This document shows, piece by piece, positions 5,182 through 56,254 of a stretch of DNA of 64,000 bases. The number at the start of each line of letters is the position of its first letter. Position 1 is the stretch's first letter. The translations under genes were made by a program, and so were the position numbers. Under the pieces are notes generated by a model that saw only the letters and a list, made by a program, of their open reading frames with translations, was not told the origin of the DNA and ran no database searches. The DNA comes from Pseudonocardiales bacterium (lineage in GTDB: Bacteria; Actinomycetota; Actinomycetes; Mycobacteriales; Pseudonocardiaceae). The DNA lies in contig JAFAPC010000019.1 in the NCBI GenBank assembly GCA_019247305.1, positions 3,437 through 67,436 of the forward strand, read 5' to 3'.

Positions 5182-5303
5182 GCCCTCACTCTAGGTGGGA
5201 ACACCGACAAAAACCGGCCGCACGCGAGCGCACTCGCCACCCGGCTGGTCCGCAGGCTTCGTCTCGGGCGTTCGTGGGATACTCATCGGCGACCCGAGGA
5301 GTC

Positions 5304-5783: not shown

Positions 5784-5981
5784 CTCCTACCGGTCGCGGC
5801 CCGGTGTCGTCGTTACAGGCAGGGGCAGCCGAGGGTTCACAATACTATTGCGGAATGCGGTGCCGTGCTCAGGCGGGATAGCCAGGTGAGCAGAGCGCAG
5901 GAGATCGATGCCGCGTTACGGCGGATAGCGCGGGGCTACCACGCGCTCGCCGACGCTGAAATACGTGAGACAGGAAAGTAG

Positions 5982-6796: not shown

Positions 6797-6799
6797 CGC

Positions 6800-7130: not shown

Positions 7131-7212
7131 TACCATGATGGATGGTGGCCACTACCTGCCCACACTGTAGGTCTTCAAAAGGCTGTTGCGTGTCTCCGAG
7201 AGGAACCCTTCC

Positions 7213-8034
7213 ATGGCGCCGAAGCGGCTACGTCGCAACTCGCCATTTGTGACTGGTGACGGTATCCAGCCGGCTGCCCCGACCACTAGCCCCTTGCTGC
7301 GCGCACCGACTGAGCTCAACAGCGACTTCCCCTGGGACGAATTCGACTCCTACTGGTACTACGACCACAACTACAAGACGTTGCGCGACGACGACCGGCA
7401 GATCATCCAAACCGTCCGGGATTTTTTCGTGACACTCGACCCGTCGAGTCACCGACACGGCATCGACGTGGGCTCGGGATCTAATCTTTATCCAGCCCTG
7501 GCCATGCTCCCGCTCTGTCACGAGATCACGCTTTACGAGTACTCAACCTCAAACATCTCATGGTTGCAGCGCGAGATCCAGTCCTACTCGCCGTCCTGGG
7601 ATGCCTTCTGGCAGTTGCTCGCCGTAGCACCACTGTACAAGTCAGTTGATTCTCCGCGAGCAACACTCGCCGCCGTGGCCCAGGTCGAGCGGGGCAGCAT
7701 CTTCGACCTGCCCCGCTCACGGTGGGACATCGGTACGATGTTCTTTACCGCAGAGTCCATTTCATCGACACCGGCGGAGTTCCAAGCCGCGCTGCGGAGC
7801 TTCATCACATCGTTGCGCACGGGGGCACCGTTCGCGGCCGCCTTCATGGAGAAGTCACTGGGGTATGATGTGGGCACACGCCGATTCCCGGCAGTCGCTA
7901 TTACAGTGAATGACGTGGAAAATTGTCTGGCGACCAATACGGAAGTTTTGGATCTTCACCGGATAGGCCTCACCGAAAATCCGTTACGCAATGGTTACGA
8001 TGGTATGATCCTGGCCACCGGAAGAGCCGCATAG
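7213..8034 (+). CDS. SAM-dependent methyltransferase, NNMT/PNMT/TEMT-like fold (recalled as SCO2525-family)
   Basis: ATG 7213 after GAGAGGAA. FPWDEFDSYWYYDHNYKTL...GIDVGSGSNLYPALAMLPLCHEITLYEYSTSNISWLQREI resembles the NNMT/PNMT motif arrangement. Confidence 0.75.
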   Translation: MAPKRLRRNSPFVTGDGIQPAAPTTSPLLRAPTELNSDFPWDEFDSYWYYDHNYKTLRDDDRQIIQTVRDFFVTLDPSSHRHGIDVGSGSNLYPALAMLPLCHEITLYEYSTSNISWLQREIQSYSPSWDAFWQLLAVAPLYKSVDSPRATLAAVAQVERGSIFDLPRSRWDIGTMFFTAESISSTPAEFQAALRSFITSLRTGAPFAAAFMEKSLGYDVGTRRFPAVAITVNDVENCLATNTEVLDLHRIGLTENPLRNGYDGMILATGRAA

Positions 8035-8066
8035 CGAGACTCAAGGACGCAGATGGGCAACTACCG

Positions 8067-33354: not shown

Positions 33355-33375
33355 GTGCCCGAGAGAGGTGCATAC

Positions 33376-36300: not shown

Positions 36301-36477
36301 TTGGACGCGATCGACAAGACAGCTCGGGGAGTCAGTGATTTTGACGATGACAGTGAGATCGCAAAAAGACTTACAGCCATTGCGGAGGGATCGATCGACG
36401 AGCCTGGGATTAGTGATCTAGACGAAGACATGAAGATGATGATCAGGATTAGTAGTTGGACATTGCTCGGATCCTGA
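33376..36477 (+). CDS. Tubulin/FtsZ-superfamily 'tubulin-like' GTPase domain protein (1033 aa) with long helical C-terminal region
   Basis: ATG 33376 after GAGAGAGGTG, 19 nt after the vWA stop. T1-like loop ALVIGAGGTGRWV, GAGQMRQWGR, and tubulin-signature-like TGSLCGGTGSATIFD. Confidence 0.8.
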   Translation: MYNSALVIGAGGTGRWVLTHLRARILGMSGWLSGESPAPLGGVRLVGFDIDSQNAYEFAGHGLTESDLVFSTPEIADVIRNIRDVPDGDHRALYQEVREWISQREAESYDLALLNEFMETGAGQMRQWGRLGVVLAKGFYDHLRTAVGSLAAGGQVNVYVTGSLCGGTGSATIFDAAAIVHDVLKSVAPNTPRRIIGVFLLPAGMTHDVNPAEFPWLEACAFASMRELDRFQRSNGRNRLKHDGRKIVLGSRLFDLCYLLDGIRDHHGGALPPNNLINNKASLGVYPAMADLIFSYLNPASGQRLDADAANAVAHVGGSHPYKYSKFGTHTLWSPLPLVQRSLAIDDALAVLNALTSQTAVGDVPSLVSTPAVTFEDKNIFNAQVFLAARRYDEDGKAQAPRAAEVLPWLLPADPEFKPKIPSKPDYASREFPNIRNFHTPYRNPEVKSRVDELLNKYLADIQILTDSHRRQLLADFRTYLLVRCQRIANTPTVQGGLARALNSLKEIKGVADRLRESFTKLNEIEARSGRLDGLRGAYRNAQMAMDDNKRWNDAMKQRHLFEAANRLMEAEIDAQVRAKLIDLMERLSATIDDVRDKELDGWRRTFEDLAGQASQASADLDRMWNEHTSVVVRQVILTRHSGLEVAARQRLTDGLLNRLPADRNTVIASPATAFVEQKLSWTVGRSAATDQFTLMLRHPWMEGDRHELKLLKLRDLLLPLESSYAFVLDTPFGEALRHSSKDIAGLASDIRKKTSLLASTSPEPGTKPAPLPTKQVLLFGPWGDGTPEIRQLRDELARLGFAGGEFEDVLQLTAADSVAARDVPLNQSVWVVHSYHGVSFDGFGTMDKLRQGYLTLREGEKPLHVFPEERAASLIEKRISELFHAGLVSSRIDLLGPEAVGLARESRLIRQVVLLIAAKQLEWRFNRVDDCGEWVLYTEGSQSLVLAASDKALNLLPTLVDHAAQTSDSISKRILDAIDKTARGVSDFDDDSEIAKRLTAIAEGSIDEPGISDLDEDMKMMIRISSWTLLGS

Positions 36478-36636: not shown

Positions 36637-38628
<1,992 letters not shown>

Positions 38629-39556: not shown

Positions 39557-40207
39557 TCAGCCGTAGGTGTCTCGGGGGCCGCGGCCACGGACGTGGCGGG
39601 GACCGTGCACCCAGGTTGGCGCCGCTGGTGCCTGCACCCGCAGCGCCGTGACCACGCCCGGCCCGACGCCTGCGGTGATCCGGGTGAGCAGCTGTCGTTG
39701 CAGGAGGCGCAGCTGAGTGGCCCACGCGGTGGAGCTGGCCCGCACAATGAGCTCCCCGTGCGCCAGCGACACGGGCTGGGCGTGCTCGGCGACCTCGGCG
39801 CCCACCAGCGCTGCCCAGCGGGCGAACACCACACCGGAAGCCACGTGCTCGGTCCAGCCACGTTCGGCGACCAGCCGGGAGGCCAGGGCGCCCAGCGGCT
39901 GGGGGTCCCGGTTATCCGGGCGCGCCCCGGACCAGCCGCGGCGGCGCCGCGCTGCGGCGGGACGGCCAGCGGGGGTGCGGCCAGCGGGGGTGCGACGCCC
40001 AGCGCGGGCGGCTGCCAGGGCGGCGCGGGCGATGTCAGCGCCACTGCGCCCCCTGGGTAAAGGCTGGGACTCCTCGGGTAGGGTCTGGTGCCCCCCGGGT
40101 GGGGTCGGGGAGGGACTGTCGGGCTCTTCAGACGTCGACTTATCCACACTATCCACAGGTTTGTCCCCATCTCTATCTCTGGATCCGCTCAGTAAACCCG
40201 GCATCAT
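39557..40207 (-). CDS. DUF721 (DciA-like) protein
   Basis: Sits in the conserved position between recF and gyrB with an ATGA overlap to the recF stop. C-terminal [19 protein letters not shown]...[21 protein letters not shown] is typical of DUF721. Confidence 0.8.
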
Positions 40208-41379
40208 CGGAGTCGGCGCACGGTCCCGCCGTGCACGTCGAACCGCGCGCCCGCCAGCTCCGCGGGGACATCGGCGGGTACGGCGGCGGTGACCAGCACC
40301 TGCTCGGCAGCCAGCGCGACCTCGGCCAGCCGGGCCCGGCGCTGGGTGTCCAGTTCGGCAAAGACGTCATCGAGCAACAGCACCGGTTCGGCACCACCGC
40401 AGCGCAGCAACTGGTAGCTACCCAGTCGCAAGGCCAGCGCGAACGACCACGACTCGCCGTGGCTGGCGTAGCCCTTGACGGGCCGGCCGCTCAGCCGCAA
40501 CCCCACATCGTCGCGGTGCGGACCGACCAGGCAGACCCCACGCTCCAGCTCCGCCGGGCGCACCCGAGCCAGCTCCATGAGCATCGCCTGCTCCAGCGCC
40601 GCGATATCGGCCTTGCCCGCCCCAGCCGTGCCCGGCGCCACGCCCTCGCCCAGGCTGCTGCGGTACTCCAGTTGGGCGCTCGCCGCCTCTGGGGCCGGGT
40701 TTGGGACCAACTCGGGGGCCACGGCGTGGTAGGCGGCCACGACATGCGGGGCCAGCTCGACGACCAGGTCCAGCCGGGCGCCAAGGAGTTCGGCGCCGTG
40801 CCGGGCGAGGTGACCGTCCCAGACGTCCAGGGTGCGCAGATCACCCGCCCCGCCCTCAGGCCGACGGGCCGCACCGGCGGAACGCAGCAGCGCGACGCGC
40901 TGGCGCAGCACCTTGTCGTAGTCGGCTTGCACGCCGGCCAGCCGGGGGGAGCGCAGCACCAGGAGATCGTCGAGGAACCGGCGGCGCACCGCTGGATCCC
41001 CGCGCACCAACGCCAGGTCCTCCGGCGCGAACAGCACGCTGCGCAGCACGCCGAGGATCTCCCGGGGCCGTGGCATCGGGCAGCGGTTGAGCCTGGCCCG
41101 GTTGGCGCGTCCGGGGGAGATTTCCAGCTCCACCGTCAGCTCCCGGCCGGCGTGCACCACGGCGGTGCGCACGATGGCGCGCTGGGCGCCCTGGCGGACC
41201 AGGGGCGCATCGGTGCTCACCCGGTGTGAGCTCAGCGTGGCCAGGTACCCCAGTGCCTCCAGCAGGTTCGTTTTGCCCTGCCCGTTCGGGCCGATGAGCA
41301 CCGAGACACCGGGGTCGAAGTCCAGCTCGGCGTGTTCCCAGGAGCGGAAATCCGTCACCGCAAGCTGTCGGACGTACAC
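40204..41379 (-). CDS. recF: DNA replication/repair protein RecF
   Basis: GTG 41379. [46 protein letters not shown] (Walker A), [11 protein letters not shown] (Walker B). The long ORF extension upstream is not coding. Confidence 0.95.
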
Positions 41380-41384
41380 CGGCG

Positions 41385-42290
41385 CTAGTTCGCTGCGGGA
41401 TCGGGGCTGGCCGGTTGCTGCACGGCGTGCCCACCGAACTGGTGGCGCAACGCGGCCACCGCGCGCATCGCTGGGGAGTCGGACTGGCGGGAGGCGAACC
41501 GGGCAAACAACGCCGCGGAGATCACCGGAGCGGGCACCGCGTGGTTGATCGCTTCCTCGACCGTCCAGCGGCCCTCGCCGGAGTCGGCCACCCACCCGCG
41601 TAGCTGGGTGAGTTTCGGGTCCTCCGCCAAGGCCGCGACGAGCAGGTCCAGCAGCCAGGAGCGGACCACGGTGCCGCGTTGCCACGCCTTGAGCACCGCG
41701 GGCACGTCGGTGACGACCTCGGCGGCCTCCAGCAGTTCGAAGCCCTCCGCGTAGGCCTGCATCAGGCCGTATTCCACCCCGTTGTGCACCATTTTGGCGA
41801 AATGCCCGGCGCCGACGCCGCCAGCGTGCACGAAGCCTTCCTCCCGAGGCCCCTCCGGGCGCAGCGCGTCGAACACCGGCAGCACTCGCTCGACGTGCTC
41901 GCCCGAGCCGCCGACCATCAGGGCGTAGCCGTTGCGCCGACCCCACACTCCCCCGGACACACCGCAGTCCAGATACCCGATGCCGGCTCGGGCGAGTAGC
42001 TCGGCGTGGACCTGGTCATCGGTGTAGCGCGAGTTCCCGCCGTCAATGACGAGATCACCTCCGGTGAGTAACCGGGCCAGCTGGATCACGGTGTCCCGGG
42101 TCGCCTCACCAGACGGCACCATGATCCATACGCTGCGCGGTGGCGAGAGGCGTTCCACCAGCTCAGCCAGGGAGCTGACGTCCCGGCTGGGGTCGGTGCG
42201 GGCGAAACCGAGCACCTCGATGCCAGCGGCGCGCAACCTCTCGCGCATGTTGGCGCCCATCCGACCCAATCCGACGAGTCCAAGCTGCAC
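41385..42290 (-). CDS. gnd: 6-phosphogluconate dehydrogenase, decarboxylating, short (Gnd-like) form
   Basis: GTG 42290 after [22 protein letters not shown] Rossmann motif, [33 protein letters not shown]. Confidence 0.9.
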
Positions 42291-42372
42291 GAGGTGTCCT
42301 CCCAAGTAGTGCGTGCCCCTACCGTAGCGGCGCCTGCCCTGGGTCGGTGTCATCGGATCCTGACCCTCTGGC

Positions 42373-42614
42373 GCATCCACCGCTGTCCACGACCCGGGTG
42401 TTTGGGGTTTTCTGAGAAGAAGAGAACACCTCGTAGCAGTAGTAGGGACTGTGGGCGGTGTGGACGGGTGTCCATCGGGCCAGTTCCCTCGGCGTGGTGC
42501 GGTGTGGACAGCCCCGGGTGCCCTGACGCGGGGCGGGCGGGCGGGCGGTGGACAGCATCGGTGCGCGGGGCCGCGATGCACAGCCACGCCCAGTTATCCA
42601 CAGAGTTGTCCTCA
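42373..42614. promoter_or_regulatory. Cluster of DnaA-box-like 9-mers (candidate oriC remnant or active oriC)
   Basis: gcATCCACc 42373-42381, cTGTCCACg 42383-42391, TGTGGACg 42459-42466, TGTGGACAG 42503-42511, GGTGGACAG 42547-42555, TTATCCACA 42594-42602 (perfect), TTGTCCTCA 42606-14. An AT-richer stretch lies at 42400-42430. Confidence 0.55.
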
Positions 42615-43319
42615 GGTGTGAGTAGATCGGTTACCCCTGGTCTCTCGGCCGCCATGACCCGGCAGTTGGATCCGGCCGGTGAGCACCAGCTGGGCGAGGA
42701 CTTCGACGCCGCGGGCGCTGTCGTGGTCCCGGCCCTGGTTGTGTAGTGCCTTGCGCAGGTCGGCGGCCAGCGCAGCGAGTAGCGCGTGAGCGAGCTGGTC
42801 GGCGTCGGCGGCCAGGTCGGGCCGAGCGGCGCGGAGCAGGATCGCGGTGTGCTGGTGCCAGAACCGGTAGGCGCCGATGCGGTAGCGGGCGCCGGGACTG
42901 GCGGTCTCGGACAGGTGGACCAGGTTCAGGTGGGTGTCGAGGAACTCCGAGTAGGCGGTGAGAAATGCGACGAGTCGTTCGGCTGGGTCGGCATCGGGCC
43001 CCAGTGGAGGCGGCCCGGCGATGATGCGGTGCTGGAGCTCGTGTTCCCGGGCATCCAGGAGCGCTGCCGCAAGCCCGGCCTTGTCGCCGAACCGGCGGAA
43101 CAGGGTGCCCTTGCCGACGCCCGCCTCCGCGGCGATCTGGTCCATCGATACGGCATTCAGATCGTGCTGGGTGAACAGTCGCTCGGCGGCTTGCAGGATC
43201 CGGGCTCGGTTACGGGCCGCGTCGGCACGTTCCTTCGGCGGTCCGCTGCCGATCGTGAGCAGCTGTGGGTCGCCGCTGCCTCTTGCGTAAGTGGACCGCG
43301 GTCCACTACTCTGGCTCAT
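42612..43319 (-). CDS. TetR/AcrR family transcriptional regulator
   Basis: RADAARNRARILQAAERLFTQHDLNAVSMDQIAAEAGVGKGTLFRRFGDKAGL is a TetR HTH. Confidence 0.85.
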   Translation of the reverse strand: MSQSSGPRSTYARGSGDPQLLTIGSGPPKERADAARNRARILQAAERLFTQHDLNAVSMDQIAAEAGVGKGTLFRRFGDKAGLAAALLDAREHELQHRIIAGPPPLGPDADPAERLVAFLTAYSEFLDTHLNLVHLSETASPGARYRIGAYRFWHQHTAILLRAARPDLAADADQLAHALLAALAADLRKALHNQGRDHDSARGVEVLAQLVLTGRIQLPGHGGRETRGNRSTHT

Positions 43320-43337
43320 AAGCGGACTATAGTCCAC
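43291..43337. promoter_or_regulatory. Two 16-bp operator-like palindromes G(T/C)GGAC-N4-GTCCAC in the TetR/rhodanese divergent region
   Basis: gtggaccgcggtccac (43291-43306) and gcggactatagtccac (43322-43337), centres 31 bp apart. Confidence 0.6.
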
Positions 43338-43364: not shown

Positions 43365-43703
43365 ATGACCGCACTGATCAGCCGAGAAGAGCTCCGGGAG
43401 GCAATCGAAGCCAGGACGGTGACCGTCGTCGACGCGTTGCCCGAATCGTACTGGGCACAACGGCATCTGCCGGGCGCGCTGAACCTGGTCGAAGACGAGG
43501 TCAAGGCGAAGGCGGCTGACCTGTTGCCGGACAAGAACGCGGCGATCGTGACGTATTGCTCGAACCCTGCGTGTGGCAACAGCCAGGCGGTGGCGAACCG
43601 GCTGGAAGGACTCGGCTACACCAATGTGCGCAAATACCGGGAAGGAATCCAGGACTGGGTCGAGGCTGGGCTCCCCACCGAGTCCGCTGCGCCGGTCAGC
43701 TGA
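43365..43703 (+). CDS. Rhodanese-like single-domain sulfurtransferase
   Basis: AAGGAG upstream. HLPGALNL ... IVTYCSNPACGNSQ active-site loop ... REGIQDW. Confidence 0.85.
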   Translation: MTALISREELREAIEARTVTVVDALPESYWAQRHLPGALNLVEDEVKAKAADLLPDKNAAIVTYCSNPACGNSQAVANRLEGLGYTNVRKYREGIQDWVEAGLPTESAAPVS

Positions 43704-43766: not shown

Positions 43767-44489
43767 TTAGCCAGAGTCGAGGATGTGCGCGGCTCGGCTG
43801 AGCAGGTCGGCATAGACCGTTGGCCGGTCCTCGTCCACGACGGGATAGCCGACACCAAACTCGCCGCCGAGCCAGCGGGCTGAGATGCCGGGATTAGCGC
43901 TGTTTGTCCCGTCGTACAGGAAGATATGCGGGCTGCAGGTGACGCGCCCATGGCACGAAGCTCGGTATTGCTCCATCACCGCTGCTCGGTAGCATCCCTG
44001 GTCGAGTGCGGCCGCAAGGGCGTCGGTGTGGACAACACCAGTTTCCCGTGCGACATCAAGGATGACATGCCGCATCGCGATGCACCGGCCTTGTGCCCAG
44101 AAGGCACGCCGGAGCGCCCGGTCGAGCTGTTCGCTCGCGTGCCATCCCTGGGCCTTAGCTGCTTGGACGGCTTCCAGAGCCGGAAGCGTGGTGACCGGAT
44201 AGGTCCAATCCGGTCCTTGCCATAGTCGCCAGCCGGCCGCTGGTTCGATGGCGCCTAGAACCGCGATCTCTGAGTCAACCCCCGGGCGCGCATTGACTTC
44301 GCGGTTGAACAGCTCTAGCGGAAAGGCTCGCAGATCGAACCAGAGCCGGCCCTCCAGCCCGAGCCGCCGCCGGGTCTCGTGCAGCCGATGGACGGCGACG
44401 TGCGCAAAGGAACAGTTCAGGTCGGTGAAGACAGCGATCGTGTCTTTGCTTGCCGGCAGACGAGGATCGCTGGCTTGGGTGTGTCTCAC
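43767..44489 (-). CDS. DsbA/FrnE-like thioredoxin-fold protein with degenerate CxxC (CSFA)
   Basis: GTG 44489 in a GTGA overlap with the multicopper oxidase stop (alternative ATG 44519). IAVFTDLNCSFAHVAV sits where DsbA-family proteins have CPWC. Confidence 0.65.
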   Translation of the reverse strand: MRHTQASDPRLPASKDTIAVFTDLNCSFAHVAVHRLHETRRRLGLEGRLWFDLRAFPLELFNREVNARPGVDSEIAVLGAIEPAAGWRLWQGPDWTYPVTTLPALEAVQAAKAQGWHASEQLDRALRRAFWAQGRCIAMRHVILDVARETGVVHTDALAAALDQGCYRAAVMEQYRASCHGRVTCSPHIFLYDGTNSANPGISARWLGGEFGVGYPVVDEDRPTVYADLLSRAAHILDSG

Positions 44490-47400
44490 GGTGTTTCTTG
44501 CACCCGGATCAGACCCCACCAGCCCTCACTGACGCCCCAGTGCAGGTTGCCGGTCCGGTAGAGGTAGTCGCCGGGATAGCTGGCTCGGAAGCGGACGGTA
44601 CGCGTGCTGCCGGCCGCGAGCGCACCAATCGTCGACACGTACGGACCGTGCCCGACCTCGGAGACATCCCACACCTGGCCGTGGACGGTGAAGCACTGGT
44701 TACGACTGCGCGAACCACCGATCGCGAGATGGATCACGAGCTGGTCTCCGACCCGGCAGTGTAACAGCGGCGTTGGCGGCGCCGGGTCGGCCAACACGGG
44801 GTGCAGCGGGTGCAGGGCCGCAGTGCGGTAGTTGTACGCCTTCTGTCCCGCGTCATCCTTGCTGTCCGAGAATAAGTCACTGACCGGCTGCGTCAGGTCG
44901 CCGTCGTGGTAGAGGCGTAGGCCGTCCTGGCTGATGAGCACCAGTTCGCGCACCGTCTCCGCGTCGAGCCGACGCACGACGGCTTGTTCTCCGACCCAGC
45001 GTTCTCGGCCGGTCTCTGGGTCATACGGGGTAGCGTCGGCGGCTTCCACAACCAACGCGCCGACCAGGCCGCGCCGCAGGTGGGACACCACGTCAGCATG
45101 ATCCCGCAACAAGACGACACCTGGTTGATCAGCATACCAATAGTACGTATGGGAACCGCCAGGTTTGACCGTACTGTCTGCATTATATCCAACATTGGTG
45201 CCATCGTCGGTACGCACGTTGTACCGCAGTAGCGTCGGGTGTAGCGAGACCCGGCCAGACAAGACCCGCGAGCCAGGATCGTCTTTGGCCATCAGTGGTG
45301 GATCGAACGCACTGGCTGGTGGTGTCCCCTCCAGCTCGTTGATCAGCGTTATCTCGACCCACTCGCCTGCTCGGCACCGCAGCACCAGTGGGCCTTCCAC
45401 CGGCTCACCGTCCACCACATAACACAGGCCGTATGGGTCGACACGCTGGTCGTTGTAGACGATGTCCCGGGCCCGTGCTCGGACGGTGTAGCGGCGGAGG
45501 AGATGCTTGGGGGGCAGCGGATCGTGCCCGAGTAACGCGGTGGGCAGGGCGGGCAGGGCGCGCTGTGGTTGATCGTACAGGCGCAGCAGCCCCCAGCACC
45601 CCAGCCAGAGATCATCGGTCGCGCAGAACGACCACAGGTAATCACCCGCACCGTAGGAGCCGTCCAGGCGAAGCTCCGCCACATTCGAAATTCCCAGCGT
45701 CTGCTGGTTCCGCCACGGCGTGTCCGGACGGTTGGGCCACTGCCGCCACCGCATGCCGTTCATCGTGAAGCTGTGCTGCAGATCGTGTGACCCCTGGATC
45801 AGGTGCACGCGGATCGGCTCGCCCGGATAGGCGCTCAGGATCGGTGTCCGTGGGTCGTGATGGACGGAGCTTGCGAACCAGTCGGCTGGGTCCCCGCCGC
45901 GCTCGGACAGCGGCTCGCACCGATAGTTGACGCCCATCGCGCCTTGGTCGTCGGGGCCGCCAGGAACGGGCGGCGGGTTGATCGGCACCTCGCGCCTGCT
46001 GGGGCCGGTCTGGGTGTGCTCCACCAACGGGACGAAATCGGCGACGACCAGAATGAGCTCACGGTAGTCTTGGCCGTCTGGCTGGACGATCACGGCCTGG
46101 CTGCCGTGACTGAGCACCTGCGCGTGGTCGGCCGGCGACACCCAACTGGCATCCTCGGGCTCGGCGATCATCGCGCCGAACAGGCCGTGCCGTTGCCGGT
46201 AGTTGGCCAGCAGGTGGTCATGGAAGAAGACGGCGCCGAATTCTTCGTCCACGTGCCAGCGGTACGTCCAGGAGTTGTACCGGGCAAAGGCGTCCGCTCC
46301 CTGGTCCCTGGTGGTCGTCCCGGACAGGTAGTTCCAGCCGATGCTGGCGCCATCGGACACCAGCGGGTCGTACTTGACCAGGTGCGTGTGCAAGCCGCAC
46401 TCGGGCTGGAATGGCAGCGCCGGGTCGAACGCGGTCTGTTCTTGTGGCCCGCTCGGCAGGGCGTTGGTGAGCGTCATTTCCAGGATTTCGCCCTTGCGCG
46501 CCCGGATCACCAGCGGCTCGACGGTGCGTTCACCGGTCTCAAGCTGGCGCTGGAACTCCGCCAGACCGCCGGCCGCTTCGATGTCCTCGGCGAGGGCGAA
46601 GAACATGCCGCGATGGTCGTGCCAGGTCATCGCGTCCTCGACGGTCACATCGCCGTGGTAATAAATAGTTCCGGAGGCGACCACCAGGTGATACCGGCGT
46701 ACCGGCGCATCCGGCGGGCCAACCTTGGTGAACGCCTCACCGGGCTGTGGGTCGGCGCAGAAGGCGGCTGCCTCCAGGGGCGTCGGCTCGCGTCCCATTC
46801 CGGCCGGCTGGTGCGGCGTGCGCGGGGGCCGTGGCGATTTACTCGGATATGTTGCCGACTGGGTCATGAACGCGGGGAAACCGGGCCGCTCCGGGGTCGG
46901 ACGTGGCGGCGGATTCCGGTGTGGCAAGGGGGTCAGCGCAGCGATGGAAGTGCCGTCTGGGTAGGTTCTGCTGCCGTCTTGGAGCGTATCGAAGATTCGG
47001 AACAGGCCCCACATCCCCATGTGGAAGTGCACATACATGTGGCAGTGCCAGATCGCGTCGCCGAAGGCCTGGTGAACTGACCCGAGGCCGCCGAGGAGCT
47101 CTAGGGTCAGGCCCTCCTGCGGGCTGATGCTGACCGAGTCCACGATCGGCGAATTCTCGTCGTCCGGGTTGACCCGCCACTGGTGCAGATGCGTGTGGAA
47201 TACATGCGTGTCACGCATGCCGCCGTGCACCAGCCGAATCACGGCCGGATCCCCTGAGTAGCCACACAGCACTGGGGTGGCTGGGTCGCCGAACATCCAG
47301 GAGCTGTGGTGCATTTCCTCACCGGTCTGCGCGTCACGCACCGGATCGAGTACACCTTGCTCGAGCATTTTCTGATACCGGTACTGGCGCCACTCCATCG

Positions 47401-48277
47401 GCTCGATGCGCAGGTTGACGGGAAGCATGGCGATGTTCGGTGGCGTGAGATCCGCCATGGTGTCGGCCGGTACGCCAACGTTGGTCCGTGGATCAGCAAC
47501 ATGGGCGCCGACGTCGCGGGTGGCGGGTGCATGCAGTGGGACGGAGGGCAGCGGGCCGCTGGGCATGCCCGGCATCCCAGGCATGCCCGGAATCACGGTG
47601 GCGGGATTGGCTGGATTGTCGTTGCTCGGATATTCCATCATGAAGATGACGTACTCGCGGAAACTGCGATCGGGTAGGTGGACGTCCGCGTACAGACCAG
47701 CGGCGAGCGTGCCACCGGTCTGCGGATCGGTCCACGTCGCGTCCGACGCTTCAACGACCAGCGCGCCGATCAGCCCGTGGCTCTGCGCGCCCTCGCCGCG
47801 CGCGTCGGCCATGTCGCCGAAGTGGAAGACACCTTCGTGTAGACATAGCCATTCGTACTCGCGGCTCTGTCCCGGGGGCACGCTCGTGTCCGGGTTAGCG
47901 CCGGCCGCTAGCCCGTCGCTCGTGCGGGCGTCGTACCGCACGCCCTGCACGGTGATGCCCGCTGGACGCGAAAGTTCGTTGGTCAGCCGTACCCGCAGCC
48001 GCTCGCCGCGGCGAACTCGCAGCACCAGTGGTCGGGCCAGTGGGTGTGGCTTGGGAACCCGGTCGGGCTCGGTGAGATAATTGGGAAAAGGATCGGGCCA
48101 GGAAGCCGCGATGGAACGCAACTGCTCAGCGTCCTCAGCGAGCGCATACAGTGCACCATTGCCGTCGTAGTCACCAAAGGCGTTGTATGCGATGGGCACG
48201 TGCAGCGCAACGATGTCGTATGTCCTCGTCCCCTGGTCCGTACTCTGTGCGGTCGTTTGCGGTATTAACGGTGCCAC
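44486..48277 (-). CDS. Very large (1263 aa) multicopper oxidase without recognisable signal peptide
   Basis: WHCHMYVHFHMGMWGLF (the HCHxxxHxxxGM type 1/trinuclear site), FHTHLHQW, FFHDHLLANYRQRHGLFG, Met-rich GMPGMPGMPSGP. No Sec/Tat-like N-terminus. Confidence 0.8.
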   Translation of the reverse strand: MAPLIPQTTAQSTDQGTRTYDIVALHVPIAYNAFGDYDGNGALYALAEDAEQLRSIAASWPDPFPNYLTEPDRVPKPHPLARPLVLRVRRGERLRVRLTNELSRPAGITVQGVRYDARTSDGLAAGANPDTSVPPGQSREYEWLCLHEGVFHFGDMADARGEGAQSHGLIGALVVEASDATWTDPQTGGTLAAGLYADVHLPDRSFREYVIFMMEYPSNDNPANPATVIPGMPGMPGMPSGPLPSVPLHAPATRDVGAHVADPRTNVGVPADTMADLTPPNIAMLPVNLRIEPMEWRQYRYQKMLEQGVLDPVRDAQTGEEMHHSSWMFGDPATPVLCGYSGDPAVIRLVHGGMRDTHVFHTHLHQWRVNPDDENSPIVDSVSISPQEGLTLELLGGLGSVHQAFGDAIWHCHMYVHFHMGMWGLFRIFDTLQDGSRTYPDGTSIAALTPLPHRNPPPRPTPERPGFPAFMTQSATYPSKSPRPPRTPHQPAGMGREPTPLEAAAFCADPQPGEAFTKVGPPDAPVRRYHLVVASGTIYYHGDVTVEDAMTWHDHRGMFFALAEDIEAAGGLAEFQRQLETGERTVEPLVIRARKGEILEMTLTNALPSGPQEQTAFDPALPFQPECGLHTHLVKYDPLVSDGASIGWNYLSGTTTRDQGADAFARYNSWTYRWHVDEEFGAVFFHDHLLANYRQRHGLFGAMIAEPEDASWVSPADHAQVLSHGSQAVIVQPDGQDYRELILVVADFVPLVEHTQTGPSRREVPINPPPVPGGPDDQGAMGVNYRCEPLSERGGDPADWFASSVHHDPRTPILSAYPGEPIRVHLIQGSHDLQHSFTMNGMRWRQWPNRPDTPWRNQQTLGISNVAELRLDGSYGAGDYLWSFCATDDLWLGCWGLLRLYDQPQRALPALPTALLGHDPLPPKHLLRRYTVRARARDIVYNDQRVDPYGLCYVVDGEPVEGPLVLRCRAGEWVEITLINELEGTPPASAFDPPLMAKDDPGSRVLSGRVSLHPTLLRYNVRTDDGTNVGYNADSTVKPGGSHTYYWYADQPGVVLLRDHADVVSHLRRGLVGALVVEAADATPYDPETGRERWVGEQAVVRRLDAETVRELVLISQDGLRLYHDGDLTQPVSDLFSDSKDDAGQKAYNYRTAALHPLHPVLADPAPPTPLLHCRVGDQLVIHLAIGGSRSRNQCFTVHGQVWDVSEVGHGPYVSTIGALAAGSTRTVRFRASYPGDYLYRTGNLHWGVSEGWWGLIRVQETP

Positions 48278-48290
48278 TGCGATCCCTGCC

Positions 48291-49409
48291 TCATGAGGTC
48301 TCGTTGGTCAAGACGCTGCGTTGTTTTACGGGGCCGAGTACGTCTTGCGAGGCTTCCGCCGTGCTCTGCGTGAAGCGGGCCACCGGCGTGCCCTGCGAGA
48401 TCACTTGCCCTTCCCACTGGTAGCTCTGGCGGAAAACTCCGGTCGCCTCATCAGGGCACGATCGGCTGAACGTGAGCCCGATCCGGTCGCCGCGCCGCAC
48501 TGGCACCGGTTCCGCGATGGGCAGGTAACAATGCTTCCAACTATCGGAGGTTGCCCGGCCCGCGATGTCATCACCAGAGATGTCCAGCGCCACTGTGTCC
48601 GAGAGCGTCGCCACGAAATAGCCCTTGAAGCCGGTCAGGATTCCGTCGCGGCAGGCAGTATAGGCCAGCGGCACGCGGTAGGCGGCGGCCGCGGGTGGTA
48701 TGCAGTCGGGTGCCGCGAAGTTGTACAGCCGAGCCACCCTCGGTGTGGCGAGGTACGTGCACACAGGAATGATCACATCGTAGTAGAGATCAAACGGACT
48801 GCGCGCGCCACGGCGTCGCAACCGCTCAGCAAACGGCACCGGGCCGCCGGCGTCCACCGGATCACCACGGCTGACCTGCTCATGGGCCTGTTCGGCCGCC
48901 ACCGGCACCAGGTAACTCTCCACTCTGCTAGGCACCATCAGGCCACCGTCGGCGAGCAGTCGCTGGCGGACATCGGCGAGGATCGCGACGAAACCCTCGT
49001 TGTCCGCCAGGTTGCCCATGATCTCCGAAACGACGAGATCGACTCGCTCAGGCAGGCTCACGTCGAAGGACACGCCGTGGATCGGAGAGAAGCGCTCGCC
49101 GTAGCCCGCAGCCACGACACGCTCGGTCGCGGTCTGCAGGACGGACGCATTGAGGTCGATCCCGTACACTCGTTTGGCGCCGGCTTGCAGCGCCCACAAG
49201 GCTAAAATGCCGGTGCCGGTTCCCAGGTCGAGTACTGTCATGCCAGGCCGTACCGCCTCGGCGATGGCGGTACGAAACGCGGTCATCCGCACCTCGTCGC
49301 CGAGCAGCAGGTCGTGGAAGCCCTCATCCCACTCCAAAAGCTGTTCCGATGCCGGTAGCCATACCTGCTCCGGCTGGTATCCGGCTGTGCTGGTGGCAGT
49401 TGAGGTCAT
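48291..49409 (-). CDS. PRMT-like (arginine/guanidino-type) class I SAM methyltransferase
   Basis: ATGA overlap with the Rieske stop. VLDLGTGTGILALWALQAGAKRVYGIDLN (motif I) and VVSEIMGNLADNEGF (double-E-loop-like). Confidence 0.75.
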   Translation of the reverse strand: MTSTATSTAGYQPEQVWLPASEQLLEWDEGFHDLLLGDEVRMTAFRTAIAEAVRPGMTVLDLGTGTGILALWALQAGAKRVYGIDLNASVLQTATERVVAAGYGERFSPIHGVSFDVSLPERVDLVVSEIMGNLADNEGFVAILADVRQRLLADGGLMVPSRVESYLVPVAAEQAHEQVSRGDPVDAGGPVPFAERLRRRGARSPFDLYYDVIIPVCTYLATPRVARLYNFAAPDCIPPAAAAYRVPLAYTACRDGILTGFKGYFVATLSDTVALDISGDDIAGRATSDSWKHCYLPIAEPVPVRRGDRIGLTFSRSCPDEATGVFRQSYQWEGQVISQGTPVARFTQSTAEASQDVLGPVKQRSVLTNETS

Positions 49410-49669
49410 AGTTCGCTCCTACCGTCCTGCCGTTGGCGCACCGGCAGCGGATCGGTACCAGGACCTGCGACTGGGCAGCCGGTGGCAAGATCAAATGTCG
49501 AGCCGTGCAACGGGCATGTGATCTGCAGCTTGCGGACGTTGACGTACCCGTGGATGAGCCGCCCCTTACGGTGTGGGCAGGCTGCGGCGATCACGTACTC
49601 TCTCCCGTCCACCCGGACGCGTACCCACTCGCCGGGCAACGCCTCGATCACCAGGTCTGTCTGGCTCAC
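49406..49669 (-). CDS. Small Rieske [2Fe-2S] protein
   Basis: GTG 49669 after GGGAGGAAGC, in a GTGA overlap with the upstream stop. CPHRKGRL ... CPLHGSTF. Confidence 0.8.
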   Translation of the reverse strand: MSQTDLVIEALPGEWVRVRVDGREYVIAAACPHRKGRLIHGYVNVRKLQITCPLHGSTFDLATGCPVAGPGTDPLPVRQRQDGRSEL

Positions 49670-50496
49670 GCTTCCTCCCGCGCTCGCCGCACCGCGGCCT
49701 CGAAGGCAGTGCCGATCAACTCCGAGAGCAGAAGCGCACCGATCCACAGCTTGGTCGGGTCCAGAGCGTGCGCCGCTTCGTATTCCCGAATGGCGAGCTG
49801 CATCTCCTTGCGGTGGAAGTCGTCGATGTGCACATGCTCGCTGTAATAGCGCCCGTGCGTAATGCCCAGCCGTTCGCACGCTCGCACCTGGACGGTGAAC
49901 GCAGCCGGGATGCTCGCCTCCAGATAGGCCAGCGCGCCCAGGAAGTACTCCACGTCGGGCGCACGCTGTGTCAGCCAGTAGAAGACGTTCAGGAAAGCAT
50001 ATGTCTCGTCGCTGGTGTGATCCAGGTAGCGGTTCAGGTCCAGCGGCAACTCCAGCTCCGTCAGCAGATTGCGGTAGAGCTGCGAGTGGGTCTGCTGGAG
50101 GTTGCCGCAACCAAACTCATCGATGAGCACACGCATCACTGCCATCTGCGCCCGGATCGGCAGGCGAGGGATGATCGGGAAGAAATTCTGTGCCTCCGTC
50201 AGCCCATCCAGCGCGAATTCCCGGACGACGAGCGTGAACTGTGCGCGGCTCGCCTTCTCGGCCAGGTAGTGTCCGGCGGGCGTGCCCTCCTGCTCACTGG
50301 CCAGGAGTTCCTCAAGTGCTGCTACCCACTGCGCACGCGAGCCGATCATCGGCGTACGCGCAGTGAGAGCGGCAACTTTAGGTATGATCCAGTCTCGTTC
50401 GATCTGTTCGATCTGTGTGTAGCGCTCGGCGGTAGGCAGCGAGCGATTGTGGATGAACAGGCTTTTGAGGACGCTGTCCGTCGTTGCGATCCTCAT
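49666..50496 (-). CDS. Heme-oxygenase-like diiron (iron-containing redox enzyme family, HDO) protein
   Basis: ATGA overlap, AAGGAGG upstream. LIDEFGCGNLQQTHSQLY, ALAYLEAS, SEHVHIDDFH match the E/H ligand pattern of HDO enzymes. Confidence 0.75.
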   Translation of the reverse strand: MRIATTDSVLKSLFIHNRSLPTAERYTQIEQIERDWIIPKVAALTARTPMIGSRAQWVAALEELLASEQEGTPAGHYLAEKASRAQFTLVVREFALDGLTEAQNFFPIIPRLPIRAQMAVMRVLIDEFGCGNLQQTHSQLYRNLLTELELPLDLNRYLDHTSDETYAFLNVFYWLTQRAPDVEYFLGALAYLEASIPAAFTVQVRACERLGITHGRYYSEHVHIDDFHRKEMQLAIREYEAAHALDPTKLWIGALLLSELIGTAFEAAVRRAREEA

Positions 50497-51302
50497 GCCA
50501 ACACCTCCTTTGTCTGGATGATCCGGGCCGTCGTGAGCACTCCACGCCGGTGCAGCTCGGCTTTGATCATGCGATACCAGTCCGGCCGCGCCAGCCCGTA
50601 CCGCTCACAGGCGGCCCGTACCGCGCTGGCCCGTGCCGTGGACGGCTCGACGAACAGTTCCGCGCACAGAGCCGGTTCGATGTTGGCCAATGCGACTACG
50701 TAGCCATCGACGTCACCCACCTCCAGCAGCAGCGCTTCGATGCCCTGAAATATCGGTACTCCCGGACGGGCCGCGATCAGCCGCCGCGTGAACGCTGGGG
50801 AGCCGCCAGAGTCCTTGACCGCGACGACCCCCGCTAGCCTGCACACCCGCAGCAGCGTGTCCAGTTCAAGATTATTACCGGACACGGCGCTTTCGTGATA
50901 GACGACTACCGGTAGCGGGGTGGCCTGCGTCACCGCCGTGTAGTGCCGATACATGTCTTGCTGGCTGACCTGCGGCCCGTAGGGCGTGGTCACCACAACG
51001 GCACGGGCGCCGAGCACGGCCGCGAGCCGCGCTCGGGCAATCACCTCGGTGGTCTGCGGGCATTCGATCCCGGCCAGCACTGGCAGCCCACCGGCGTAAC
51101 GCACCGTGCTGGCGATCAGCTGACTCCACTGCCGGTCTGATAATGCCCAGCCTTCACCGGTGCTGAGCGCTGGAACGAGCGCTGTTACGTGTGGTCGAAC
51201 CGAGGCGATCAGCCGTGCAATATCCGGCGCGCAGATCTCGCCAGCATCGGTGAGCGGCGTGACCAGCGCGACGATCACCCCCGTCCATGCCTGATTCTCC
51301 AT
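50493..51302 (-). CDS. Dihydrodipicolinate synthase/N-acetylneuraminate lyase family class I aldolase
   Basis: GVIVALVTPLT, LSTGEGWAL, VVAVKDSGG (Schiff-base lysine position). The start shares one nt with the upstream stop. Confidence 0.8.
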   Translation of the reverse strand: MENQAWTGVIVALVTPLTDAGEICAPDIARLIASVRPHVTALVPALSTGEGWALSDRQWSQLIASTVRYAGGLPVLAGIECPQTTEVIARARLAAVLGARAVVVTTPYGPQVSQQDMYRHYTAVTQATPLPVVVYHESAVSGNNLELDTLLRVCRLAGVVAVKDSGGSPAFTRRLIAARPGVPIFQGIEALLLEVGDVDGYVVALANIEPALCAELFVEPSTARASAVRAACERYGLARPDWYRMIKAELHRRGVLTTARIIQTKEVLA

Positions 51303-51790
51303 CACAACTCCGTCATCGGTACGCGAAGCGCCAGCGAGGTGCGGTAAAGCCGCTCCAGTGCGTCCGGGAACAACAACTCCACGTCGGCCTTTGGCGCCCG
51401 TACCGGCAGCGAAGCGTGTGCCAACAGCCGTGGACTGACCGACCACAGCATGCCGTTTCTGTTCAGGACCATCCCCGCCAGCAACCGTTCGTGCATGGCC
51501 AGGCCATCCAGCTCCGCCAGCAGGCCGACTCGCAAGTCGGCCGCGTCATAGCCGCGGCGCTCGATGCGCATATCCGTGTGCAGGTTGTCCATGAACGGGT
51601 AGTAGGCGTCTTGCACCGCACGCGGGAACCGCCACACCAGGTCATCACACCGGCCGACCTGTTCCCAGCTCATCACCACGTGGTCGGATAGTCGCGCGGC
51701 AAAAAATGATTTGCAGGCGATCCGCATCGACTCATCGGTACTGTGCATACCGAGGAACAGTGCCGCGTCGACGTACACGTCACCGGCCAT
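51302..51790 (-). CDS. Small protein of unknown function (162 aa)
   Basis: ORF bridging the PLP enzyme and the aldolase, with overlaps at both ends. No motif recognised. Confidence 0.55.
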
Positions 51791-53060
51791 GGCGATCAAG
51801 TATCCGGCGTAGTCGGGTCATCGCGGTGGCGAACATCTTTGGGTCGCGCGCCAGGGCGATCCTGATGAAGCTATCACCCCTGCTCGGCTGACTCCAGTAG
51901 AAATATCGGCCGGGCAGCACGTATACTCCTTCGCTAAGGAGGTCGGATTGCAGCTCCGATGCGGTCAGTTCCGGGTGGTCGATCCGAAACCAAGCCACGC
52001 TGACCGGCACGATCGGTTCCTGGTATTTCAAGATCGACCCGTTGAGGACACTGCGTGTGGTTTCGCGGTTGTGCATGAGCACGTCACGTATCGAGCAGAA
52101 GTCGTCGGCGATGGAGTCCTCGATGTACTGTGTCAGCATGTTCAACACGAACGGCGATACGTTCAGCAGCACGCTGGTGTGAATGTTGTAGACTGCTTTT
52201 CGGATGTCATCGCTGACTGTGATCATCGCACACTTAGCGTCCTGCACCGGCCAAGTCTTGCCGGTGTCCTCGATCGCCATATACGTCACGCCAGAATTTT
52301 CCAGCAGCTCGTAGACGTCGAAACGCGTCAGCTTGGAGTCGAATAGCGTGAAGGCGGCGAAACAGAAGTCAATCACCAGCAGCTTGCCGTGGTCCCGGCA
52401 GAATCTCACTACTTCTTCGAAACCCTGACGCCCATGGGCTAGCAGGCTGTATCCGGTGGGGTTGTTCGGATCGACCAGGAACAGTGCGTCAGTACGGACA
52501 CGCCGCTTGAGTTCACCGTAGATCATATCTGGGTCGGTGAGAGTGGATTCATCAATCGGATACAGTGGAACGCCCATGTTCGCCAGCACGTCGTGCAGGT
52601 TGTCGAAGCATGGCTCGACCAGCGTGACGGCCATCCGCTGCTGCTTGAGGAACATGGCAGCAACCATCGTAGAGATCGACGCGGCGTAGGAGAGCAGGGT
52701 TTTCTTTTTGGTCAAGGCGGTCGGTTGCCCGTGTAACCGGAAGAACGCCTCGGTGAAACGACGTTCGTAGGTCTCCTGTAACCCTTCCTCAGTCTCATAC
52801 CACAGCTTGGGTAGCTGCTCGATAATCTTGCGTTGGCTTAGTGACTGTCGCTGGTGCGTGTGCGCGTCGGCCAAGTTGAACTCGGTCCGCAGGGCTTGGA
52901 TCTCATGCTGCGTAAGGTCAAGGAGTGTCTCCCGATCGGCGTTGAACATGGGGTCTCCGGGAGACCAGGACACTAGGCAAGCCCCGTTTTGCTGGTCTAG
53001 GACCGATTTCCCTGCTGTTTCGCTGTAGTCCATGTTCTGTCCCACTTGCAGCTTTGACAT
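51780..53060 (-). CDS. Fold-type I PLP-dependent enzyme (aminotransferase class I/II-like)
   Basis: ATG 53060 after [26 protein letters not shown] (candidate PLP lysine). First gene of the coupled operon. Confidence 0.8.
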
Positions 53061-53258
53061 CTCGATGCCCCTCCTGTCCGCCGGCTTAATCGGCAACGAC
53101 TATAGGAGGATGAGTAGTGCTCGTCACATACGTCATGGCATACCCCCGATCGGGTGAAAACCAGGCTGTGCAGCCCGACGTGGATGCGCGAACCCCTGCC
53201 ATGGTTCATCCGAAATTGGAAAGCCAAACCTACCGGGAGATCGGGCGCCATCGATGCC

Positions 53259-54672: not shown

Positions 54673-56178
54673 TCAGGAGCGGGCGCGCTGTTTGATTCGG
54701 GAGGTGAGCTCCTGCACCTGGTCGTAGGTGCGGCGGCGTTCGGCCATCTCCTTGCGGATCTTGCGGTCCGCGTGGATCACCGTGGTGTGGTCGCGGCCGC
54801 CGAAGGTCTGCCCGATTTTCGGCAGGGACAGATCAGTCAGCTCCCGGCACAGGTACATGGCGATCTGTCGGGCCTGGGCGACATGCTTGGTCTTGCTGGG
54901 CCCGCACAGATCCTCGATGGTGAGCCCGAAGAACTCGGCGGTCACCGCCATGATGTGGGGTGCGCCGATCTCGCGCGCCGCCTCGTCCGGGATGAGATCA
55001 CGCAGCACGATCTCCGCGAGCTGGCGGTCCACCGGTTGGCGGTTCAGCGAGGCGAACGCGGTGACCCGGATCAGCGCTCCCTCCAGCTCGCGGATGTTGC
55101 GTTCGATGCGGGCAGCGATGAACTCCAGCACCTCATCGGGCGCGGCCAACCGGTCGCCAGCGGCCTTCTTGCGCAGGATGGCGATCCGGGTCTCCAGCTC
55201 GGGCGGCTGGATGTCGGTGATCAGGCCCCACTCGAACCGAGTGCGCAACCGGTCCTCCAGCGTGCCCAGCCCCTTCGGTGGGCGATCGGAGGAGATCACG
55301 ATCTGCTTGTTCGTGTTGTGCAGGGTGTTGAAGGTGTGGAAGAACTCTTCCTGGGTGCCTTCCTTGCCCTCCAGGAATTGGATGTCATCCACCAGCAGCA
55401 CGTCGACGTCGCGGTAGCGGCGTTGGAAGGCCACTTTGCGGTCATCCCGCAGGGAGTTGATGAAGTCGTTGGTGAACTCCTCCGTGGAGACGTACCGCAC
55501 CCGCATACTGGGGAACAGCCGCTGCGCGTAGTGCCCGACGGCGTGCAGCAGGTGCGTCTTGCCCAACCCGGATTCGCCCCAGATGAACAGCGGGTTGTAG
55601 GCACGCGCCGGTGCCTCGGACACGGCCACCGCTGCGGCGTGCGCGAATCGGTTTGAGGCGCCGATCACGAAGGTGTCGAACGTGTACTTCTCGTTGAGCC
55701 TGGTCTGCGAGCTCGGCGGCCGGGTCGCTCCCGCAGCGGCCGGACCAGCGAAGGGGGGCCAGATCTCCTGCACGGTGGCCTCGCTTTGCTCGTCGCCAGA
55801 GTCGGTGGCGGCGCCGAGGGCAAGCCCACTCGGCGGGGTAGCGCCTGAGCTGGAGTCGTCAGACACCACTGGTTCGGGGGTGGTGAACTGCGGCGGTAGC
55901 TCCGGTGGCACCGGCAGCGGATGGTCAACCTTAACCGCGAGCGACACCTGCCGACCCAGGCGCCGGGACAGTGCGGCGCTGATCGGCTCGCGGAGCGCCC
56001 GCTCGATAGCGTCTTTGGCGAAGTCGCTGGGCGCGGCCAGCAGCGCAGTGCCATCCAGCAGACCGATCGGCCGGGTGACCCGCATCCAGGCCCGTTGCTG
56101 CGGCGACAGCGTCCCGGTGGAGAGCTCCCGGACGACCTCGCTCCACACCTGGCCGAGGTCGTTTTGCCGCTCTGACAC
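54673..56178 (-). CDS. dnaA: Chromosomal replication initiator DnaA
   Basis: GTG 56178 after GAAGGGGAG (alternative start 56232). [33 protein letters not shown]-terminal DNA-binding [15 protein letters not shown]. Confidence 0.95.
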
Positions 56179-56222
56179 CCGCTGACTCCCCTTCGGCCGG
56201 TGGTAGACGCCAGGAACGCTGC

Positions 56223-56254
56223 GCGTCCACAAAGTTGTCCACAGCTGTGGACAG
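56223..56254. promoter_or_regulatory. Three DnaA boxes just upstream of dnaA
   Basis: cgTCCACAa 56223-56231, TTGTCCACA 56235-56243, and TGTGGACAG 56246-56254 (inverted). Confidence 0.7.

Follow-up and report, generated by a model that had tools for sequence, protein, structure and literature searches.

A probable azomycin-type (roh) gene cluster with conserved accessory genes in a Pseudonocardiales bacterium

The 64,000-nt stretch analysed here (the window; positions 3,437 to 67,436 of contig JAFAPC010000019.1, assembly GCA_019247305.1, from a Pseudonocardiales bacterium) carries eight intact open reading frames (ORFs) on its minus strand at 43767-53060. As judged from its sequence, this locus is very probably (about 0.85) an orthologue of the Streptomyces cattleya-type roh (azomycin) cluster, and the three genes downstream of the core would belong to its operon as conserved accessory genes. 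It adds a further host to a known cluster family and is no new pathway. Azomycin, a nitroimidazole antibiotic made from arginine, is the natural lead compound for nitroimidazole drugs, and its pathway is relevant to biocatalytic nitration. In gene order, the eight genes are as follows.

51780..53060, minus strand: rohP, pyridoxal 5'-phosphate (PLP)- and O2-dependent L-arginine oxidase/hydroxylase of the MppP family, 426 aa (PDB 6c3a match)
51302..51790, minus strand: rohQ, DUF6190 cyclodehydratase, 162 aa (PF19689 and PDB 9c5w)
50493..51302, minus strand: rohR, DHDPS-family class I aldolase (retro-aldolase), 269 aa (PF00701, E 1.7e-32)
49666..50496, minus strand: rohS, heme-oxygenase-like diiron (HDO) N-oxygenase, 276 aa (PDB 9pfx match)
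49406..49669, minus strand: Rieske [2Fe-2S] ferredoxin in the rohT position, 87 aa (PF00355, E 7.9e-12)
48291..49409, minus strand: predicted S-adenosylmethionine (SAM)-dependent N-methyltransferase resembling protein arginine methyltransferases (PRMTs), accessory, 372 aa (PRMT structures and PRMT5_C/PrmA)
44486..48277, minus strand: MnxG-type six-domain multicopper oxidase, cytoplasmic, optional accessory, 1263 aa (PDB 9bxa)
43767..44489, minus strand: monothiol DsbA-like thioredoxin-fold protein, similar to FrnE and kappa-class glutathione S-transferase (GST), accessory, 240 aa (PF01323, E 2.3e-10)

The first-pass annotation of this DNA had described a translationally coupled eight-gene operon, and all of its coordinates and junctions were exactly reproduced. 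From rohP onwards, the junctions are an 11-nt overlap (rohP/rohQ, 51780-51790), a single shared nucleotide (rohQ/rohR, 51302), an ATGA overlap (rohR/rohS, 50493-50496), a GTGA overlap (rohS/Rieske gene, 49666-49669), an ATGA overlap (Rieske gene/methyltransferase gene, 49406-49409), a 13-nt gap (methyltransferase gene/oxidase gene, 48278-48290), and a GTGA overlap (oxidase gene/DsbA-like gene, 44486-44489). Shine-Dalgarno sequences of the AGGAG/GGAGG type were seen 5' of rohP, rohS, the Rieske gene, and the methyltransferase gene. The organism is also represented by another assembly, an ENA metagenome contig (L001) that was 99.6% identical over 10.5 kb, and independent gene calls on it gave boundaries that agree (426, 162, 269, 276, 87, and 372 aa). 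Pfam analysis of the eight proteins returned Aminotran_1_2, DUF6190, DHDPS, Haem_oxygenas_2, Rieske, PRMT-like methyltransferase (PRMT5_C, PrmA), multicopper oxidase, and DSBA, so the domain assignments made from the letters alone were upheld. The matching gene set and order recurred in more than 20 loci of other genomes, which rules out a chance arrangement.

The first four genes had been read as a rohPQRS-like core leading from arginine to 2-aminoimidazole or azomycin, and this reading is backed by structure matches of RohP, RohQ, and RohS and by synteny. The product of gene 1 matched PDB 6c3a with E 1.9e-201 and 672 bits over residues 44-426 (383 residues) at about 75-80% identity, and the chain sequence of 6c3a is exactly the S. 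cattleya protein that heads the same gene set. Ordinary aminotransferases scored below 30 bits against it, so the PLP enzyme does not group with them. Gene 2 encodes a full-length DUF6190 protein (PF19689, E 1.5e-67) that matched both RohQ cyclodehydratase structures, PDB 9c5w and 9oq8 (E 2.4e-25), and the 162-aa protein is thus related to RohQ. In the translation of gene 3 we saw the Schiff-base lysine motif VKDSGG. A RohR-type gene holds the R position in every roh locus, with 38-87% identity to the window gene (63% for S. cattleya and 38-43% for the Pseudomonas genes).

Gene 4 matched two RohS structures, with E 8.5e-59 and 202 bits for PbrRohS (PDB 9pfx), whereas its match to SznF was weak (1e-10, 44 bits); the HDO enzyme therefore falls with the N-oxygenase RohS. 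The metal ligands of PbrRohS, including a seventh Glu, have been listed (PMC13133933), and all seven are kept in the window protein: E101, E127, H137, E193, H221, D225, and H228 align with native PbrRohS E98, E124, H134, E190, H218, D222, and H225. A His-to-Arg change at a conserved ligand inactivates PstoRohS, the P. syringae enzyme (PMC13133933), and this sensitive His is among the ligands kept in the window RohS.

Another arginine pathway, either that of enduracididine (MppPQR) or one of the streptozotocin type (SznE/SznF), would also begin with some of these enzyme classes. The best NCBIfam match of gene 1 is indeed MppP (TIGR04462, 3.9e-52), gene 1 also matched the MppP structure 5dj1 (8.5e-60), the HDO protein weakly resembles SznF, and the PRMT-like methyltransferase recalls SznE of the streptozotocin pathway. 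However, MppP reached just 177 bits, well under both the equivalog cut-off of 450 bits and the 672 bits of RohP, and the operon has no MppQ or MppR genes, so the MppPQR pathway was rejected. The SznE/SznF pathway was rejected as well, since RohS has no cupin domain and scores higher with RohS than with SznF, and the methyltransferase shares just 23-31% identity with the SznE-like homologue that stands beside an SznF-like HDO-cupin protein in Pseudomonas salomonii (L017). This low identity places the methyltransferase in a separate PRMT-like clade, apart from SznE. Given the RohP, RohQ, and RohS matches together with synteny, we regard both of these pathways as refuted and the chance that either is encoded here as negligible.

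The P. salomonii locus and two others in Pseudomonas (L017-L019) had been retrieved by RohS patterns and are not roh clusters. L017 (6817-15674; the same in L018 and L019) contains genes for an AlkB-like oxygenase, an Ada methyltransferase/regulator, and a 510-aa SznF-like HDO-cupin protein, and further ones for an SznE-like PRMT-like methyltransferase, a major facilitator superfamily transporter, a hydrolase, and an ATP-grasp enzyme. From these genes it looks like a streptozotocin-like pathway for an N-nitrosourea or alkylating agent with DNA-alkylation repair genes.

The Rieske protein had been counted as an extension of the core, which did not hold. The operon of Pseudomonas sp. DF41 encodes a PLP enzyme, a DUF6190 protein, a DHDPS-family protein, an HDO protein, and a 78-aa Rieske protein, and adjoins luxR/luxI; a P. 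syringae-type genome carries the same five-gene operon. Deletion of rohPQRST in DF41 abolishes azomycin (PMC12713392). Since the Rieske gene is fifth in the window as in DF41, genes 1-5 are rohPQRST in canonical order, and the Rieske protein is RohT as assigned by position. The P-Q-R-S gene order, which had been left unverified, is therefore real. The CxH and CxxH ligand motifs of the Rieske protein are kept in 14 orthologues.

From orthology to enzymes that have been reconstituted in vitro (PMC10724926, PMC13133933), the pathway would run as follows. RohP would use PLP and O2 to convert L-arginine to 4-hydroxy-2-ketoarginine, RohR would split this by retro-aldol cleavage to guanidinoacetaldehyde and pyruvate, RohQ would cyclise guanidinoacetaldehyde to 2-aminoimidazole by cyclodehydration, and RohS would N-oxygenate 2-aminoimidazole to 2-nitroimidazole. 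RohS probably receives its electrons from the Rieske protein, as suggested by an in-frame RohS::Rieske fusion in another roh locus (L030, 4293-5384).

We then come to the three downstream genes. The census covered 22 distinct roh loci, most of which were retrieved with patterns from the window RohS, so it is biased toward close relatives. The methyltransferase gene was found in 19 of the 22, including that of Sorangium (L029), where it lies 5' of rohP; it is absent from the two Pseudomonas operons and from L025 (none within the contig). The DsbA-like gene was present in 17/22 loci. The Sorangium and Pseudomonas loci are without it, two loci end at contig ends, and in L030 no such gene was found within the contig, which ends about 400 bp past the methyltransferase gene. 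Its position varies: in L007 it is found between rohR and rohS, and in L013 and L014 the opposite strand carries it. The MnxG-type oxidase gene was present in only seven loci, always between the methyltransferase gene and the DsbA-like gene. Thirteen further actinobacterial loci from a genome collection share the pattern of S. cattleya and Kitasatospora azatica, whose clusters are compared below.

The three genes might be unrelated neighbours that happen to abut rohPQRST. That Pseudomonas makes azomycin without any of them, and that the oxidase is found in less than a third of the loci, would fit this. But they adjoin their neighbours by 4-nt overlaps or across a 13-nt gap, their co-location survives rearrangement (the DsbA-like gene of L007 and the methyltransferase gene of Sorangium), their divergence parallels that of the core genes, and there are three kinds of in-frame fusion to the Rieske protein. 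Besides RohS::Rieske, these are Rieske::methyltransferase in L026 (2852-4159) and Rieske::DsbA-like in L025 (7520-8551); the Rieske::methyltransferase fusion of S. narbonensis was found twice, in an NCBI genome and independently in a Logan assembly. We therefore consider unrelated neighbours very unlikely. The coupled junctions, co-location, parallel divergence, and in-frame fusions speak for the accessory genes as part of the unit, and the Rieske fusions suggest a site of action for the methyltransferase and the DsbA-like protein in physical proximity to RohS and the Rieske electron carrier.

The methyltransferase has the features of the PRMT fold, namely SAM motif I (VLDLGTGTG), the double-E loop, and a C-terminal beta-barrel, with the THW loop substituted. 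Its N-terminal half matched the PRMT6, PRMT1, and CARM1 structures (E 1e-23 to 1e-14), and its C-terminal half matched the PRMT5 beta-barrel (Pfam PRMT5_C). Motif I, the double-E loop SE[IT][ILM]GNLADNE, and TSDSWKH are kept in 17 loci, in which both glutamates are invariant and an invariant DSW (in TSDSWKH) replaces the THW loop of PRMTs. The window loop reads SEIMGNLADNE, and its Glu-Glu offset of 9 residues presumably matches that of PRMT1. Orthologues near roh genes share 56% (Sorangium) and 49% (L030, a metagenome locus of Gram-negative type) identity with the window protein, and the corresponding values are 63% and 53% for RohP and 51% and 42% for RohS, which indicated parallel divergence. 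To judge from its operon context and from the precedent of SznE, its substrate would be a guanidine of small-molecule type. As a guess that rests on the kept double-E loop, the enzyme would most likely N-methylate a cyclic guanidine, 2-aminoimidazole or its oxidised forms.

This bears on the end product. The first-pass annotation had supposed a tailored derivative, for example N-methyl-2-nitroimidazole, perhaps oxidatively coupled by the oxidase. Several observations speak for it: the methyltransferase retains the two invariant guanidinium-binding glutamates of PRMTs together with the TSDSWKH loop, it co-evolves with the roh genes across phyla and occurs as a Rieske fusion in S. narbonensis, and SznE/SznF-like loci likewise combine a PRMT-like methyltransferase with an HDO N-oxygenase. 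Moreover, K. azatica RohS reportedly works on unmethylated 2-aminoimidazole at only 5% of the catalytic rate of AurF and PrnD (PMC10724926). However, RohP, RohR, RohQ, and RohS of methyltransferase-bearing clusters take unmethylated substrates in vitro (PMC10724926, PMC13133933), a methylated exocyclic amine would block formation of the nitro group, and the oxidase is missing from most clusters and so cannot be essential. When the papers covered here were searched for 1-methyl-2-nitroimidazole made naturally by Streptomyces, nothing came up beyond a review of nitroimidazole chemistry. We hold a tailored product to be possible but rather doubtful. Another literature search, for azomycin together with a methyltransferase, multicopper oxidase, or DsbA, or for RohT, RohU, or RohV, found nothing relevant in a body of papers that did not include Hedges and Ryan 2019 or the RohQ paper.

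The DsbA-like protein is not a classical DsbA dithiol oxidoreductase, which was ruled out by a CSFA/G site instead of CxxC, by the lack of an export signal, and by cytosolic fold neighbours. Its active site is an invariant C26-S-F-A/G-H without a second cysteine, and C185-S-P-H in the cis-Pro loop is kept in every syntenic locus and, across 36 aligned homologues, in at least 90%. Neither a signal peptide nor a hydrophobic segment was found in it, and it had no PDB match by sequence and no NCBIfam family; 381 protein-cluster representatives matched it at E ≤ 0.001, with no usable annotation. Its AlphaFold2 model (pLDDT 89) has as fold neighbours FrnE, YjbH, HCCA isomerase, kappa-class GST, DsbM, SCO1869, and Rv2466c (TM 0.5-0.65, identity 12-19%). 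On this model, the protein resembles monothiol enzymes that work with a thiol of low molecular weight. The protein is better conserved than RohQ, RohR, or the methyltransferase. It may, as a guess, act with such a thiol (mycothiol) beside the Rieske protein, in electron supply, Fe-S upkeep, or trapping of nitroso species.

A canonical GST gene lies directly 5' of rohP in L030 (713-1826, with a DoxX gene) and near the operon in DF41. Of the Gram-negative-type roh loci, L030 and L023 (GST at 3060-3698) have such a neighbour; no GST was found near the P. syringae-type roh locus. By analogy, this hints that GST may be a counterpart of the actinobacterial DsbA-like protein, with glutathione equivalent to mycothiol.

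These observations bear on whether the end product is plain azomycin, with the methyltransferase, DsbA-like protein, oxidase, and a neighbouring rhodanese serving self-protection or cofactor maintenance. Possible roles would be trapping or reduction of nitroso and hydroxylamino intermediates by thiols, repair of the Rieske Fe-S cluster, and re-oxidation of reduced nitroimidazole. The monothiol CSFA site, the cytosolic FrnE/kappa-GST/DsbM/Rv2466c-like fold, and the Rieske fusion in L025 agree with such roles, as do the kept adjacency of the rhodanese gene and the lack of export signals in the oxidase and the DsbA-like protein; the GST genes of L030 and DF41 fit a swap of glutathione and mycothiol. 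This support is circumstantial throughout, though, the P. syringae-type loci have no GST nearby, and a role in resistance leaves the retained guanidinium-binding site of the methyltransferase unexplained. Plain azomycin is a serious candidate for the end product, although we would stop short of calling it probable.

The oxidase matched Bacillus MnxG (PDB 9bxa) along its length with E 1.9e-215 and has six cupredoxin domains, although its NCBIfam MnxG score of 210 is far under the cut-off of 3100. The copper motifs HxxHxH (358-363), HCHxxxH (411-417), HTH (630-632), and HDH (686-688) do not vary among five orthologues. Neither a twin-arginine motif nor a hydrophobic segment was found in it. As for MnxE/MnxF partners, the junctions leave room for no extra ORF in the operon (no MnxE/F similarity search was made), and no gene besides the oxidase gene was called between the methyltransferase and DsbA-like genes in any locus. 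The window oxidase shares 71-74% identity with the Streptomyces copies and RohP 72-77%. This divergence in step fits an oxidase inherited with the cluster and repeatedly lost, and in the closest relatives of the window (L004 and L005) it has been cleanly lost. As a guess, the cytoplasmic oxidase would be a dispensable extra oxidant.

We also considered whether the oxidase and DsbA-like genes form an independent module, and rejected this, as the S. peucetius locus (L028, CP107567.1) is a decayed roh cluster. Its stretch 5172-8756 holds MarR and rhodanese genes, oxidase residues 452-1261, and an intact DsbA-like gene. The oxidase there is 5'-truncated and without the HxxHxH and HCH motifs, and the locus directly adjoins an integrated element (integrase, RepSA, FtsK/SpoIIIE, SpdB).

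Some points weigh against the reading of the locus as an azomycin cluster whose accessory genes belong to it. The co-occurrence counts carry the bias of the census. Pseudomonas makes azomycin with just the five genes (PMC12713392), and in vitro the RohS of K. azatica turns over 2-aminoimidazole that bears no methyl group (PMC13133933, PMC10724926). Azomycin chemistry can thus do without the methyltransferase, oxidase, and DsbA-like protein. A bolder proposal is that most non-Pseudomonas roh clusters encode a larger unit. In it, RohS, the guanidine-type N-methyltransferase, and the monothiol DsbA-like protein would assemble around the Rieske protein as the hub for N-oxygenation. A low-molecular-weight thiol (mycothiol in actinobacteria, or GST and glutathione in Gram-negatives) would drive or protect the assembly, the native product would be an N-methylated 2-nitroimidazole instead of azomycin, and the MnxG-type oxidase would be an optional oxidant. 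Taken as a whole we think this proposal unlikely, and the orthologue of the S. cattleya-type cluster with conserved accessory genes remains our preferred reading.

Three features flank the operon.

43365..43703, plus strand: single-domain rhodanese, a conserved roh neighbour (PF00581, E 2.4e-15)
42612..43337, minus strand: TetR-family regulator, divergent from the rhodanese gene (PF00440, E 1.5e-16)
53099-53127, minus strand: promoter-like site GTGACG-17-TATAGT, 39 nt 5' of the rohP start (weak evidence)

The divergent TetR/rhodanese pair noticed in the first pass was confirmed. Rhodanese homologues adjoin roh genes, on either side, in most of the actinobacterial loci (L005-L012, L014, L016, L020, and L021). 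The active-site loop of the window rhodanese, YCSNPACGNS, has two cysteines, and S. cattleya has two rhodanese genes by its roh cluster. A homologous TetR gene lies divergently 5' of rohP in most Streptomyces loci and in K. azatica, and the window TetR is likely a cluster-situated regulator that would control the operon. Promoter- and terminator-like sites in the region were no more frequent than in shuffled sequence, and the site at 53099-53127 was the only well-placed one.

The roh operon with the rhodanese and TetR genes lies between dnaA (54673-56232) and gnd-like/recF genes (40204-42587). The order at actinobacterial origins is usually dnaA-dnaN-(gnd)-recF-gyrB-gyrA, and dnaN was not present between dnaA and the gnd-like/recF genes of the window. 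In the 1.5-kb dnaA-rohP spacer we found no Pfam-recognisable ORF, strict DnaA box, or notable repeat. The independent assembly L001 confirmed the dnaA-roh junction, though not the TetR-gnd junction. Next to gyrB (36637-38601, minus strand) lies not gyrA but a plus-strand pair of lower GC (0.59-0.61), encoding a protein with a VWA domain (31816-33354) and one of 1040 aa with a Tubulin_2 domain (33355-36477). Either this genome has been heavily rearranged or invaded near its origin, or the contig of this metagenome-assembled genome is chimeric.

A member of the Pseudonocardiales is thus added to the known roh cluster family, and the PRMT-like methyltransferase turns out to be nearly as faithful to the roh genes as the five named genes. 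These comparative findings may help explain the poor in vitro activity of actinobacterial RohS with artificial reductant, and they may bear on whether the native product of most clusters really is azomycin. The functions of the accessory genes would decide the true end product of the cluster.

The closest known system is the roh cluster of S. cattleya (FQ859185.1, 433412-453924), the source of PDB 6c3a-6c3d, which has the identical eight genes in identical order. Its multicopper oxidase has 1270 aa, the start of its DsbA-like gene overlaps the stop of the oxidase gene, a rhodanese gene adjoins, and its proteins share 63-81% identity with those of the window. The window differs in its Pseudonocardiales host, in the cluster position between dnaA and gnd/recF, and in the rhodanese and TetR genes, which are downstream in the window but upstream in S. 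cattleya. The roh cluster of K. azatica, from which the first RohS to be characterised came, has the order P-Q-R-S-Rieske-methyltransferase-DsbA-like with TetR and rhodanese genes upstream, that is, seven of the eight genes without the oxidase. The extended architecture had been taken for an undescribed variant, which cannot stand, because S. cattleya has the identical eight genes and K. azatica has the methyltransferase and the DsbA-like protein. The Pseudomonas sp. DF41 operon agrees with the window in its five core genes and their order, in having overlapping junctions, and in all seven RohS ligands. It shares 36-52% identity with the window, lacks the methyltransferase, oxidase, and DsbA-like genes, and is flanked by luxR/luxI and GST genes instead of TetR and rhodanese genes.

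In streptozotocin biosynthesis, SznE/SznF likewise pair a PRMT-like methyltransferase with an HDO N-oxygenase that has the seventh Glu (PMC13133933), with a guanidine-type nitrogen as the target of both; RohS differs from SznF as a single-domain protein of 276 aa with no cupin domain. Bacillus MnxG has the six-domain architecture and the aligned HxxHxH, HCH, HxH, and HDH motifs in common with the window oxidase. However, it has Ala after HCHxxx where the window oxidase has His, and the window oxidase has no export signal and sits in a secondary-metabolite operon. FrnE, DsbM, HCCA isomerase, and Rv2466c are cytosolic proteins that combine a thioredoxin domain with a helical insertion, as is predicted for the DsbA-like protein.

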